Origin: an uncultured Pseudomonadota bacterium | GTDB taxonomy: Bacteria > Oederibacteriota > Muellerivitia > Muellerivitales > Muellerivitaceae | NCBI GenBank assembly: GCA_963770835.1 | Contig: CAVYRH010000004.1 | Location: forward strand, 1-64,000 | Reading direction: 5' to 3' | DNA length: 64,000 nucleotides | Part shown: in pieces, positions 692-25,214 of the stretch | Position numbering within the stretch: the first letter of the stretch is position 1 | Layout of the letters: every line of letters begins with the position of its first letter | Notes under the pieces: model-generated | The model's database searches: none | Told to the model about the DNA's origin: nothing | What the model saw: the letters and a program-made list of their open reading frames with translations, nothing else | Made by a program: the position numbers and the translations under genes

Positions 692-797
692 GGCCCACTC
701 CCCGAGGCCGAAAGCTTCAATGGGGAGGGGGCAGAGGGACTTCCGTTGGAAGGACTCTCCGCTTCTTATTCCCGAAGAAGCATTCGAAGATTTCTCA

Positions 798-945
798 AGG
801 CCGGTCTCCTGACTCGGGGCACTCACCTTCCGGGCCTTCCCATCTTTTGGACAGTGGTTCCCGGAAAAAACGTCGCCCCTCACAGTGGCGGGTCCGTGCC
901 GGATTTACACCGGCTTCCCGAGCACCCTGAGTTGTGATGGTTAAA
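798..945 (-). ncRNA. Cobalamin (B12) riboswitch upstream of btuB
   Basis: Minus strand reads GGGAAGCCGGTGTAAATCCGGCACGGACCCGCCACTGT...CCACTG...GGGAAGG...AGTCAGGAGACCGGCC, which contains the conserved core and the B12 box. Confidence 0.93.
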
Positions 946-995
946 TACTCCTGTCGGCGGGACTTGTCAACGGCAAAGAATTCCGAAAAACCTTT

Positions 996-1903
996 TCAAT
1001 TTTTTTGCGCCCGGGCGTCGCGGAATATCCCTGAAAGAAATTCGCCCAGGCCCACCATGCTGGGACCGGGGATCAGATACTCATCCTTATTGAAACAATA
1101 GACCCGGTGGTTCTTCACCGCTTTTAGGGAGGGCAGGCCGTCCCACACGGCGGCTTCCCGGACCACCTCATCCGGTTTACATGGGCCGGGGGAAAGGCGT
1201 TCACGATGACGTCCGGGTCGCTTTTCAAGAGTTGCTCTTTCGAAACCAACGGATAGGATACGGGCGAATCGGAAAGGATGTTCACCCCGCCCGTCCAGCG
1301 GATGAGGGCATCCACGAAGTTATGGGGCCCCACGCCGTAAATCTGGTCCAGGGCGCCGGGAGTCCGGTCGATGACGAAAAGCACGGAGACGGGCCTTCCT
1401 TGGGTTGGCTCAGCGCGTATCTTGGCAAGCCTCGCCGCCAGCTTTTCCTTGGCCTTTTTCGCGGCGGCCTCCCGCCCCAGGGCTTTCCCCAATGTGTCAT
1501 AGGCAGCCAAAACATCCTCCACCGTCTGGCAATCCTGGACCAAAACGGGAACCTTCAACTTTTCAAGGTTGTCCACGGCCTTGCCGTGAAATTTGAGGGC
1601 TAGCACCAGGTCAGGTTTTAGCGAAAGGATTTTTTCGTAGTTGGGATTGATCCAGCCGCCGATTTTTTCTTTCTTCTGCGCCTCCGGCGGGAACTTGCAG
1701 AAATCGGTGACACCCACCAAAAGGTCCTGGGCGCCGATATCGTAGACGATCTCAGTCAGGTTCGGCGCCATGGAGATGACGCGTTTCGGTGGCGTTTGCG
1801 CGAAAAGGGAAGTGGCCACCCAAAGCAGTAGGATTAATAGAATTAAAAAGAACCTTGCCCGGTTCAATTTAAAGTTAGGTGCTCGAAATCCAGCGTTTAT
1901 CAC
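996..1903 (-). CDS. btuF: Cobalamin ABC transporter periplasmic binding protein (BtuF-like); frameshift near 1150
   Basis: Signal peptide, then RVISMAPNLTEIVY, VGVTDFCKFP and PNYEKILSLKPDLV. The C-terminus (KAVKNHRVY...IPGPSMV...) continues in another frame to TGA at 996. Confidence 0.8.
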
Positions 1904-1960
1904 TGACCTGTTCCCCGGCGTCTTGTTTTAAGGAGGCCGCCTTAGTGTACAATCCAAACT

Positions 1961-2155
1961 ATGTCCCAGCAAAACAAACCCGAAACCAAGACCTGCGGCC
2001 GCTGTGGAAAAACTTTCGATTGCTTCGCCCGCACCGGCGGGTGCTGGTGTGAAAAGCTGCCGCCCCTTTCCAAGGCGGTGGCGGGCCACGACTGCCTCTG
2101 CCCCCAATGCCTGGAAAAAGAAATCCAGGCTCAACAAGCCGCCCGAAAACCCTAG
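1961..2155 (+). CDS. Cysteine-rich CWC family protein
   Basis: CGRCGKTFDC...CWC...CLCPQCL pattern in a 64-aa ORF. Confidence 0.85.
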   Translation: MSQQNKPETKTCGRCGKTFDCFARTGGCWCEKLPPLSKAVAGHDCLCPQCLEKEIQAQQAARKP

Positions 2156-2164
2156 GAAACCAAC

Positions 2165-3088
2165 TTGTCTTCCGAACTTCGAATCGCTTCTTTCCTTCCC
2201 TCGGCCACTGAGATGGTCTGCGCCTTGGGCCTGGCCGACCAATTGGTGGGCGTCTCCCACGAGTGCGACTATCCACCCGAAGTAAAAGGCAAACCCGTCG
2301 TGGTGCGATGCGCTATGGACTTGGCATCCTTCAACCTGGACCAGATCGACAAGGCCGTCAGCGAAAGGGTGGGCCAAGGCGGGAGCGTTTACGCGGTGGA
2401 TGAAAAGGCCATCCGGGCCGCCTCCCCCAACCTCATCCTCACCCAGGACCTCTGCCAAGTCTGCGCCCCCTCGGGCAACGAAGCAACCCAGATGCTAAAT
2501 TCCTTATTCCCTAAACCTGAAATCCTTTGGCAGACACCCCATTCCTTCGAGGACGTCTTGGTATGCCTCCTGGCCTTGGGTGAGAAGACGGGAACCCGTG
2601 AAAAAGCCGAACAACTGGTGAAGGAAGCCCGTCTGCGGATCGAAAAGGTTAAAACCGCCACGAAGAGGCTTCCCAAAGTGAAGGCTTTTTTCATGGAATG
2701 GGTGGACCCTATTTACTGCGGCGGCCATTGGGTGCCCGCGATGATCGAATGGGCGGGCGGAGCGGACGAAATTTCCAAGCCCAACGTGGATTCGGTGAGG
2801 ATTCCCTGGGAAGAAGTTGTCTGCTTCAACCCGGAGATTCTTATCGTCGCCCCCTGCGGCTTTGGAGCCCAGGACGCCTTAAAACAAGCCGAACAGTTGA
2901 AATCGAGGCCCGGTTGGAAAAGCCTGACGGCTGTTCGACAGGGAAGGGTCTTCGCCGTGGACGCCAATTCCTATTTCGCCCGCCCGGGCTTGAGGCTTGT
3001 GGACGGCGTGGAAATCCTGGCCCACTTGATCCACCCGGAACTTTTTAAATGGAACAGCCCCGCTGAAGCTTTCTTCCAGGTATCGTAA
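2165..3088 (+). CDS. Cobalamin/Fe-chelate binding protein (helical-backbone family) without a signal peptide
   Basis: RIASFLPSATEMVCALG, VGVSHECDYP, LILTQDLCQVCA and VDANSYFARPGLRLVDGVE motifs; TTG start. Confidence 0.85.
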   Translation: MSSELRIASFLPSATEMVCALGLADQLVGVSHECDYPPEVKGKPVVVRCAMDLASFNLDQIDKAVSERVGQGGSVYAVDEKAIRAASPNLILTQDLCQVCAPSGNEATQMLNSLFPKPEILWQTPHSFEDVLVCLLALGEKTGTREKAEQLVKEARLRIEKVKTATKRLPKVKAFFMEWVDPIYCGGHWVPAMIEWAGGADEISKPNVDSVRIPWEEVVCFNPEILIVAPCGFGAQDALKQAEQLKSRPGWKSLTAVRQGRVFAVDANSYFARPGLRLVDGVEILAHLIHPELFKWNSPAEAFFQVS

Positions 3089-3097
3089 GATACCAAC

Positions 3098-3730
3098 ATG
3101 GATACCGCTCAGAAGCCACCCACTCTTTATACCGTCGGCCATTCCAACCATACCTTCGAGGAATTCCTCATGCTCCTACGGGTCCACGGCATCGGGCGCA
3201 TCGTGGACGTGCGCACGGTGCCCAAATCCCGCCGGGTTCCCTGGTTCAACAAGGAAGAGCTTGCGCCGGCCCTCAACAAGGCCAATATCCGCTACGCCCA
3301 TCTTCCCGAACTGGGTGGATTAAGGCACTCCAAGAAAGACTCTCTCAACCTCGGCTGGAAAAATGAAAGCTTTCGGGGTTTCGCCGATTACCTGGCCACC
3401 GGGGAATTTGAAAAGGGTTTGGAAAAACTAAATGAAATGCTGCCGACCTTGAAGACCGCCGTCATGTGCGCCGAGGCCGTGCCCTGGCGTTGCCACCGCG
3501 CCCTCATCTCCGACGCCGAAACCGCTCGGGGTATTCCCGTGGTGCACCTCATGTCACTCACATCCAAAAAGCCCCACGAAATGACGGCCTTTGCCGTGGT
3601 GGACAAAGGATTAAATCCACCCCGGATCACTTACCCCGCGCCGAAGGAAGAAAAAACCCAACCCGACCTGCCCACCATGGCCCCGGCTTCGCCCAAGAAA
3701 AAACACCCGAAGAAGCCGAAGACCCGGTAA
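3098..3730 (+). CDS. DUF488 family protein
   Basis: LYTVGHSN, IVDVRTVPKSR, ELGGLR and MCAEAVPWRCHR motifs. Confidence 0.88.
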   Translation: MDTAQKPPTLYTVGHSNHTFEEFLMLLRVHGIGRIVDVRTVPKSRRVPWFNKEELAPALNKANIRYAHLPELGGLRHSKKDSLNLGWKNESFRGFADYLATGEFEKGLEKLNEMLPTLKTAVMCAEAVPWRCHRALISDAETARGIPVVHLMSLTSKKPHEMTAFAVVDKGLNPPRITYPAPKEEKTQPDLPTMAPASPKKKHPKKPKTR

Positions 3731-3733
3731 ATC

Positions 3734-4405
3734 CTATTCGGTTTCTTCTTCCATCTCTCGGCAACCCCACCGGTCATGGTAGACCAAATCCGTAAAAGGA
3801 ACCTTCGGCAGCCATCCCGCAGTCTTCAGCTCCGGCTCGGGCGCAAAAGTATCCGTATAGCCCACGCAAAGATAGGCGATGGGCACCACACCTTCCGGCA
3901 ACTCCATCAGGGCCGCCAGTTCTTCCGGGCGGATAATGCTCACCCAGCCAACACCCACCCCCTCGCAGCGCGCGGCTAACCAGAGGTTTTGTACGGCGCA
4001 GACCGCGCTATAGAGGTCCATGTCCGGCTGGCTGGTGCGGCCCAGGACGACGGGCCCGAAACGGTTGCGGTCGCAGGTGACGCAGATGTTTAAAGCCGAC
4101 TCCAAGATGCCCTCTAACTTCAGGGAGGCGTATTTCTCGCCGCGTTCACCGGGAAACATTTTCTTGGCTTCCTCATTCGCCCGTTGGAAGGCCTCGTGTA
4201 CCTTGTGCCGGACGGCTTTATTTTTCACCAAGATAAAATTCCAGGGCTGGCTGTAACCCACGGAAGGGGCCTGCATGGCGGCGGTCAAAATCCGCCCTAG
4301 GACGGGTTCGGGTAAGGGATCGGATTTGAAACGCCGCACGTCCCGGCGTTCCCGGATGACGCGGTAAACCACATCCCGTTCTTTCTCGTTGAAACCGTCT
4401 TTCAC
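3734..4405 (-). CDS. bluB: 5,6-dimethylbenzimidazole synthase (BluB, nitroreductase fold)
   Basis: RRDVRRF, APSVGYSQPWNF, LKLEGILE, GPVVLGRT and DLYSAVCAVQNLWLAARCEGVGVGWVS motifs; sits in a B12 locus. Confidence 0.9.
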   Translation of the reverse strand: MKDGFNEKERDVVYRVIRERRDVRRFKSDPLPEPVLGRILTAAMQAPSVGYSQPWNFILVKNKAVRHKVHEAFQRANEEAKKMFPGERGEKYASLKLEGILESALNICVTCDRNRFGPVVLGRTSQPDMDLYSAVCAVQNLWLAARCEGVGVGWVSIIRPEELAALMELPEGVVPIAYLCVGYTDTFAPEPELKTAGWLPKVPFTDLVYHDRWGCREMEEETE

Positions 4406-23862: not shown

Positions 23863-25214
23863 TCAAGCGACCTGGTAGGGAACCTGGGCGATGAGCTGAA
23901 GGGCCCTTTCCCTGTGGTCCTCGGGCACCAGGAGGCGCACCTTAAAAAGGGGCTTGAGCCAGAGCACGAGGAGGCGGAAATGGTAACCCTGGAAATGGCA
24001 AGGTACCTTTTCGTTTTCAAGGAAGCCTTTTAAATAGGAAGCCAGGGCCATATTGTCCAAAACCATTAGCTCGATCCCCGGGCCGTTAACCTTCCAAAAC
24101 TGCCATTGGGCCAAAAAGTCCTGGGCCAAACCCATAAGCCAAATGATATATGTGAAGTTGATAATCCAATAGAGGGACTGGAAATTTTCCGGGCCCACGG
24201 GCACCCAAAACAGCGCGGCCCCGAATAGGAGCAGGGGAAGTGTACTGCCGAATTGACGATTGAGGAGGCTTTCCCGCTTCGTGAGGTAGCGGGGCAGGTC
24301 GGCAACTTGGATCCCGAAGAGGTCAATGCCCCAGAACCAGTTGTAACAGAGGATTCCCAGGAGGACCATCATCGCCAGTTCCAACCATAAGTGGGACCAG
24401 CCTTCATGCATCCAGGTGTTGGGAACGTTGGCTAGACTCATGTAGGCACCTGTGGTGGAAATGCAGGTCAGGACAAAGCCTTCAATAACCGCGCTGGAAG
24501 GAAAGGGTGGAACCTCGAACCAAGCCAGCTTTCCAATGACTGTCCGGAAGGGAAAGCGAGGGGGCCTCCGGATCAATCGCCAAAGATAATAGGAAAAGGC
24601 GGCCAGCACCAGGACCATAGCCAGCACCACGAAGTTTTGGTTACCGTCGTGTTTGGCGGCCAGGTATCCCTGGAAACACCCAATAGGCGTCATGACGAGG
24701 CTTGGGATATCCCTGGCCAGCAGAAGGATCAGATAGCCGTTGCCCACGCCGTATCGGGTGATGAGCTGGGCCAGAATGATGGACAAGGCGACCCCCCCAT
24801 GAGTGCAAGGATGGTCAGGAACTGGAATAGGAGGAAAGGGCCCTCGATGTAGTTTCCCATGAGCCTTTTGAGCAGGTAGGTGGTGCCCAAGGCGTTGATG
24901 AAACAAAATATAAAGGAAAGGCGCCAGGCCCAAAGATTTAACTTTTTGCGGCCTGCCGCTCCTTCCAGGCGCCAACGGTTGAGGGGCGGCAGGACCAATG
25001 AAAAGACCTCCAGGACGATGAAGGCGGATAGGACAGGTTTGAGCCCTAAGACGAGGAGATTGAGTTTTCCCATGTGCTTCCCGTACCAGTCGGGATTCAT
25101 GGCAAAGGCTTCGCCGGTGGTGGGAAGGGGCAGGTGGTAAAGTGCGGCGTAGAGGCCCGCCAAGAGGACGGTTAGGAGGAAGGCGTTACCATAAGACTTC
25201 TCATTTGGAGTCAT
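23863..25214 (-). CDS. SecY-like membrane protein with a C-terminal DUF2007-like domain (frameshift at the C-run near 24792)
   Basis: HLPLP, LNLLVLGLKPVLSAFIVLE, LEGAAGRKKLN and LITRYGVGNGYLILL parallel SecY TM1-TM5 motifs. The C-terminus ALASYLKGFLENEKVPC...VRLLVPEDHRERALQLI looks like DUF2007. Confidence 0.65.

Follow-up and report, generated by a model that had tools for sequence, protein, structure and literature searches.

In the housekeeping translocon SecY, the barrier across the membrane is maintained by a plug together with a pore ring (PMC8082313), the pore ring is loosened by plug loss (PMC2585858), and three cytosolic-loop arginines, R255, R256 and R357 of E. coli SecY, are binding sites for the ribosome, FtsY and SecA (PMC3575545). 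A second diverged protein, SecY2, works with SecA2 in streptococci and staphylococci (bioRxiv 10.1101/202358), and SecA domains in giant proteins are the subject of a further preprint (bioRxiv 10.1101/2023.11.21.568195). No SecY-DUF2007 family is described in the literature searched (titles and the beginnings of abstracts), and the same literature gives DUF2007 no function. To our knowledge, the SecY plug and the ribosome- and SecA-binding arginines have been treated as universal. By sequence comparison, the SecY paralogs with a DUF2007 domain described here are a family distinct from both housekeeping SecY and SecY2; its divergent members, well over 100 of them, keep the channel under selection without plug or arginines, so the fold must have some use for which neither is required. 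The family is thus a natural test of sealing without a plug and of opening without SecA or a ribosome, to which the copy studied here contributes little beyond one more, very diverged clade, with a frameshift.

This copy lies on the minus strand of the window, the whole 64,000-nucleotide stretch of DNA that was analysed. An initial annotation had placed a SecY-like gene with a frameshift near 24792 between 25214 and 23863; strand and coordinates were borne out, with one gene read in two frames, and the break was located in a G7 run that is one base short relative to related genes. The features are as follows.

23863..25214, minus strand: SecY-DUF2007 paralog gene, about 450 codons with one frameshift, ATG at 25214 and stop at 23863
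24799..25214, minus strand: 5′ frame with TM1, shortened plug region, TM2, C2 loop GxxGR, TM3 and the start of TM4; Pfam SecY E 1.4e-10
25059..25121, minus strand: plug region, 27 residues versus 40 in housekeeping SecY and so about 13 shorter in the alignment
24792..24798, minus strand: G7 homopolymer (C7 on the plus strand), one base short of the register in intact relatives and the sole lesion in the gene
24736..24750, minus strand: TM5 hinge GVGNG, its G160 and G164 unchanged in all 139 family members
24499..24567, minus strand: shortened C4 (6/7) beta-hairpin without the tip that bears E. coli R255/R256, 28 versus 38 residues
24256..24333, minus strand: C5 (8/9) loop, with the GIRPG/R357 motif gone
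24118..24120, minus strand: TM10 Asp at the E. coli D415 position, Asp in 135 of 141 paralogs and Glu in the other 6
23884..24072, minus strand: DUF2007 domain at the C-terminus, running on from TM10 and predicted to be cytosolic
23950..23976, minus strand: Arg and hydrophobic loop of DUF2007, consensus R-x-L-x-x-F-F-x-P, a candidate cytosolic plug

The four N-terminal SecY motifs claimed in the annotation are present in order, and the 3′ frame matches Pfam SecY weakly (E 1.4e-3) and DUF2007 (PF09413) at E 7.1e-7, with 29.7 bits against a cut-off of 25.7, so that the C-terminal domain assignment also stands. Because the closest intact relatives are single open reading frames, P0004 (454 aa, 59% identical) and P0005 (451 aa, 54%), the two frames are one gene, and the reading as two independent genes was discarded. 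Intact relatives are 451-531 aa long.

Homology to SecY extends across all ten helices. A profile of the family aligns E. coli SecY from residue 17 to 430 (E 1.2e-76); the segments deleted are approximately L52-F67, G254-S262 and P354-G359, residue numbers being counted from this alignment, and hhalign of the family against the genome's own SecY gives a probability of 99.92 over 361 columns. The full-length protein that was folded was the closest intact relative, P0004, in place of the window's copy; its AlphaFold2 model (pLDDT 90.8 and pTM 0.90 for the whole chain, 96 and 87 in the loop blocks) shows ten long helices in two halves, a C4 hairpin with strands at 224-228 and 234-238, and a TM10 that runs straight into the DUF2007 domain. 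All of the top 50 Foldseek matches to the model are SecY or Sec61, and it superposes on SecY (VIA) with Z 24.4 and an rmsd of 3.8 over 366 residues; as ten TM helices in two halves that align end to end, the protein has the SecY/Sec61-alpha fold. The divergent second half proposed initially is real, as paralogs keep a mean of 35% of the near-invariant positions of 26 housekeeping SecYs in the N-terminal half and 17% in the C-terminal half, yet this half is still SecY by profile, hhalign and the P0004 model, and a second half of non-SecY origin was rejected on profile match and fold. The claim that it lacks the SecY C-terminal motifs holds for the C4 tip and the GIRPG loop, but TM6-TM10, with the TM10 Asp, and the C4 hairpin base can still be aligned. 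Both the GVGNG hinge and the TM10 Asp are present in the window's copy and conserved throughout the family.

What the family has lost is concentrated in the plug and the docking loops. The plug region has a median of 26 residues in the paralogs and 40 in housekeeping SecY, and in the P0004 model the plug helix TM2a is reduced to a helix of four residues with pLDDT 62. The C4 tip with R255/R256 (28 versus 38 residues) and the C5 GIRPG motif with R357 (36 versus 46 residues) are deleted family-wide; G.RPG occurs in 1 of 141 paralogs and in all 26 housekeeping SecYs. The C4 loop stays net positive, at +4 in the window's copy, so the paralog may still bind ribosomes weakly. Glu occupies the Q93 position of TM2 in the window's copy and in 138 of the 141 paralogs, versus none of the 26 housekeeping SecYs, Arg occupies the K106 position in 136 of 141, and R113 and D415 are retained; by SecY topology these positions are on the cytosolic side. 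At the aligned pore-ring positions the window's copy reads L, L, Y, L, G and W (the TM7 alignment is uncertain), and its clade carries bulky Tyr/Phe and Trp there; the plug limits and the ring positions other than I408 are those generally assigned in SecY. Gains are also seen: an N-terminal Cys-rich module in 25 of 139 members and, on the single member P0155, a SecDF P1 head (E 7e-13). Basal members retain a Pfam SecY match of E 1e-56. The family-wide absence of docking loops and most of the plug fits the repurposing that the annotation envisaged.

The remaining Sec components of the genome were located by genome-wide search. A housekeeping secY, the canonical copy expected elsewhere, lies in the ribosomal operon of another contig (G000:C11:70413), between rplO and adk-map, genes that were named from their translations. 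One SecA exceeds its cut-off (C25), and secE is found on C24 with a noisy duplicate on C19 and none near the paralog gene. As the annotation stated, the paralog is outside the spc operon, next to genes for an epimerase, NAD-dependent by Pfam, and a thioesterase; GAF-HD, PEBP and aldo-keto reductase proteins are further window neighbours identified with Pfam. In the same window, 16994-19753 matches an MrfA/Hrq1-type DEAD helicase with a Zn-binding domain in Pfam, and an extra C-terminal exonuclease-like region was seen by eye. Genes for SecA2, the Asp proteins or a glycosylated adhesin are absent from the window neighbours and from the scanned neighbours of related loci, in line with the claim that the gene does not belong to the SecY2 accessory system. 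Family scores place the paralog in neither class: TIGR00967 gives 62.7 bits for P0004 and 62.7-73.6 for intact clade members against a cut-off of 253.6 (409.7 for the genome's own SecY), TIGR02920 (SecY2) gives 30.1 for the closest intact relative and at most 38.7 for clade members against 249.6, and PRK12417 (SecY2) gives clade members at most 38.5 against 353.

The family set was assembled from a profile search of 50%-identity representatives, of which the best 150 matches were taken; of 158 proteins, the 139 that reached both ends were kept, and fragments and housekeeping SecY were dropped. In a FastTree phylogeny, 141 paralogs form one clade with respect to 26 same-phylum housekeeping SecYs (support 0.998), and the window's copy shares a long branch with P0004 and P0005; its nesting in this clade, with those SecYs as outgroup, led us to reject a recent duplication of the genome's own secY. 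The family is patchy and is intact in many uncultured bacteria. Matches occur in 3 of 40 related genomes and in none of the three genomes of the same genus, and full-length members are encoded by seven genes in 6 of 99 genomes of the phylum, including the window's own, with the other five carriers each also having a housekeeping-type SecY match. A scan of one sub-clade gave 11 named loci in Desulfobacterota/Deltaproteobacteria and Nitrospirota, with Desulfogranum marinum DSM 2058 as a cultured carrier, and Atlas clusters, with taxa for few members, point to Myxococcota and Acidobacteriota.

Neighbourhoods are not conserved: across 17 related loci (6 same-phylum, 11 named), no shared partner was found beyond close kin, and no Sec component was found by Pfam among about 33 selected neighbours, where open reading frames were called only at 80-90 aa or longer, a limit at which a neighbouring secE could escape notice. 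Several local arrangements were noted. In three of the 11 named loci (L053:4588-5976, L056:477-1869, L060:2167-3573), the paralog is immediately preceded by a gene for a membrane protein of about 465 aa that matches TPR weakly. In G021, G024 and G018, hypothetical proteins that are homologs of one another and have no match in Pfam are encoded at most about 4 kb upstream (L043:7503-9779, L044:1742-2425, L045:8513-9751), with no homolog found in the window. In G073, the paralog lies between two group II intron reverse-transcriptase-like open reading frames that share their start (L048:3758-5344 and L048:8327-9913). A defence gene was considered and rejected (none of four proteins tested matches PADLOC), as was plasmid or phage carriage, since 17 plasmid and 13 phage records matched and none covered more than 80% of the query.

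Two further kinds of related protein were seen. In 7 of the 99 genomes of the phylum, complete SecY-like segments are embedded in giant open frames of 1,773-13,678 aa: at loci L049-L052 (G061:C19:26695-27813, G056:C6:246560-247684, G064:C1:66204-67247 and G030:C8:82453-83580) and on contigs G063:C13, G059:C62 and G065:C297. SecA domains lie downstream of the SecY segment in the same frame in L049, and the DUF2007 tail is absent from the four loci inspected (L049-L052). In the window's genome, L010:1198-3165 (C10) and L100:956-1678 (C4) encode membrane proteins in which DUF2007 is joined to a zinc ribbon and a B-box-like zinc finger, and one of the two also contains TPRs and a CAAX-type protease. 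Two SecY paralogs, P0008 and P0009, begin with this B-box-like module.

The frameshift in the window's copy is probably a local homopolymer error in a gene that is intact in the cell. The competing reading, that the G7 slip is real in this strain and the copy is a recent pseudogene of a family functional elsewhere, is the less credible of the two and yet a serious contender: Logan contigs from runs X2 and X4 span the G7 run without a gap, an X1 contig, which begins two bases before the run, is likewise gap-free, the truncated product recurs in a second assembly (P0006), and the gene is missing from all three same-genus genomes searched. The platform of the Logan runs is unrecorded, however, so a systematic long-read error would give the same picture. 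Against decay, the slip is the only lesion and GC3 is 0.71 in both halves, and both halves of the paralog are under purifying selection, with dN of 0.54-0.68 and dS from 1.85 to saturated. Errors of the same type recur in the genome: three other genes, including amtB and a HAMP-adenylate cyclase gene, are broken in the same way at G7 runs, and missing-base shifts affect 4 of 176 G7 runs, with no extra-base shifts, versus 23 of 3,618 random sites (p 0.034); the count of coding G7 runs with a missing base was five before C4:647184 was left out because it lies at a gene boundary. Copies of tuf, nusG and rplK are also frameshifted at a contig end of this genome. An intact allele from the same species was not found; scans of JGI metagenomes gave nothing and then two weak partial matches. 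No RNA data set was listed as carrying the sequence.

Other broken genes were recorded alongside. At G000:C20:56344, C10:41832, C10:173802 and C19:132387, a G7/G8 run that is one base short splits a gene; the products are an ammonium transporter, a HAMP-adenylate cyclase, a ParB-N protein and a hypothetical protein. At the start of contig C19 (G000:C19:435-3539, L008), a second tuf-rpmG-secE-nusG-rplK copy with many frameshifts is probably a noisy assembly end. Another member of the SecY-DUF2007 family, at L060:3747-5356, seems split into frames of 409 and 114 aa.

The C-terminus of SecY is cytosolic, and the DUF2007 domain continuous with TM10 would thus also be cytosolic. The Arg of its R-x-L-x-x-F-F-x-P loop is present in 137 of 139 fused domains versus 1 of 29 non-fused DUF2007s, many of which are truncated in the alignment. 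The best structural matches of the domain are the small alpha/beta first domains of EscJ, PrgK and MxiJ (Z 7.6-8.3, rmsd 2.1-2.2, about 60 residues), followed by PDB 2HFV (RPA1041; Z 6.9, rmsd 2.7 over 68 residues); matches of such middling Z lend no support to the signalling function given to the domain initially, which derives from the Pfam label. An Atlas search with the tail alone gave no usable match. The high pTM of the P0004 model suggests that the tail is placed rigidly. In mean-field direct coupling analysis at a depth of only 139 sequences, a beta2-beta3 control pair ranks first, and the pair 245-423, joining the start of TM7 to the loop Phe, ranks seventh overall and sixth of 83,903 in the 91-sequence main clade; this low-depth coevolution hints, weakly, at gating by the tail. 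Separating the clades lowered other inter-domain pairs (166-417, 244-429 and 165-391) to ranks of about 770-4,000, and these were set aside as clade artefacts. The P0004 model is nearer to open, substrate-engaged SecY than to resting SecY (Z 24.4 versus 17.3), and so is a core-only model of a G021 protein with DUF2007 removed (Z 29.2 versus 22.3); because the core alone resembles engaged SecY, the tail is not credited with setting this conformation, and the idea that DUF2007 wedges the gate open was abandoned. The engaged-like state may be a prediction bias for a SecY folded without SecE.

Our preferred reading, held tentatively and at a little under even confidence, is that the paralog is a dedicated channel uncoupled from SecA and the ribosome, in which the tethered DUF2007 loop would act as cytosolic seal and gate. 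The ten-helix channel is kept, and most of the plug and the loops for docking SecA and the ribosome are gone. Since plug loss loosens the pore ring (PMC2585858), the paralog needs another seal, and since this SecY is without docking loops, it needs another trigger; the tethered Arg and aromatic loop could supply both. It would dock in the cytosolic funnel against the conserved charges E73, R86, R93 and D370 (P0004 numbering) and there stand in for the lost plug. A client or partner would push the loop aside, whereupon a narrow set of polypeptides or membrane helices may pass through or exit by the lateral gate. More broadly, and with a shade more reserve, the family may be a natural third bacterial class of SecY, plugless, with a tethered signal-sequence-like loop that replaces the SecA/ribosome interface and seals the pore from the cytosol, serving dedicated clients as a translocon or insertase that gates itself and needs no motor, and widespread in uncultured lineages.

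Three other functions were weighed against this one. It is unlikely that the paralog is an accessory translocon that exports with the housekeeping SecE and SecDF, with DUF2007 serving as a new docking site for a motor, chaperone or ribosome instead of as a plug. The retained GxGNG hinge, lateral-gate helices and C4 hairpin base, the SecDF P1 head of P0155 and the strong Pfam SecY match of basal members all suit such a protein; there is, however, no dedicated SecA in the genome and no motor among the scanned neighbours, and aromatic residues make up most of the conserved loop, which is coupled to the mouth of the channel. Scrambling by insertases is known, and a protein of membrane quality control or lipid handling that works solely through its lateral gate (a dislocase, holdase or scramblase), with nothing crossing the membrane, would accord with an N-terminal half conserved twice as much as the C-terminal half, with the bulky pore-ring residues of the clade, with the DUF2007 and B-box/Zn-ribbon modules on other membrane proteins of the genome, including the CAAX-type protease, and with the Cys module of this kind in 25 of the 139 members. 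Selection on all ten helices and both halves and the lack of a recurring protease or ATPase neighbour make this function, too, unlikely. That DUF2007 brings channels together as oligomers, in a larger pore or a scaffold, as the ring-building motifs in the first domains of EscJ, PrgK and MxiJ could suggest, is very improbable, given that a Z near 8 falls in the tool's range for common arrangements and that the domain is predicted cytosolic here.

Set beside known systems, the channel with a tethered loop that we prefer combines familiar and new parts. With housekeeping SecY (PF00344, TIGR00967; PDB 5AWW, 8Y9Y, 5ABB) the paralog shares the ten-helix clamshell fold, the GxGNG hinge, the C2 GxxGR, the TM10 Asp and the C4 hairpin base, but its plug is about 14 residues shorter, the C4 tip (R255/R256) and GIRPG (R357) are deleted, Q93 is replaced by Glu, the pore ring, as aligned, no longer reads all Ile and a C-terminal DUF2007 is added; it is also patchy, located outside the ribosomal operon and additional to the normal secY. 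Like the SecY2 of the SecA2/SecY2/Asp system, it is a second diverged SecY beside the housekeeping one, yet it falls far below the SecY2 cut-offs and lacks secA2, asp or a serine-rich adhesin nearby. Its tail passes the PF09413 cut-off and its model matches 2HFV, but the domain is fused to SecY and carries a near-invariant Arg and aromatic loop that the sampled non-fused domains do not have. Plug-deleted and prl mutants of SecY/Sec61 resemble it in plug loss and in a pore ring that, as aligned in the paralog, is altered, changes that destabilise the closed state (PMC2585858; PMC3164448); unlike these mutants, the paralog is natural and its changes are family-wide, with the docking loops lost too and a domain gained.
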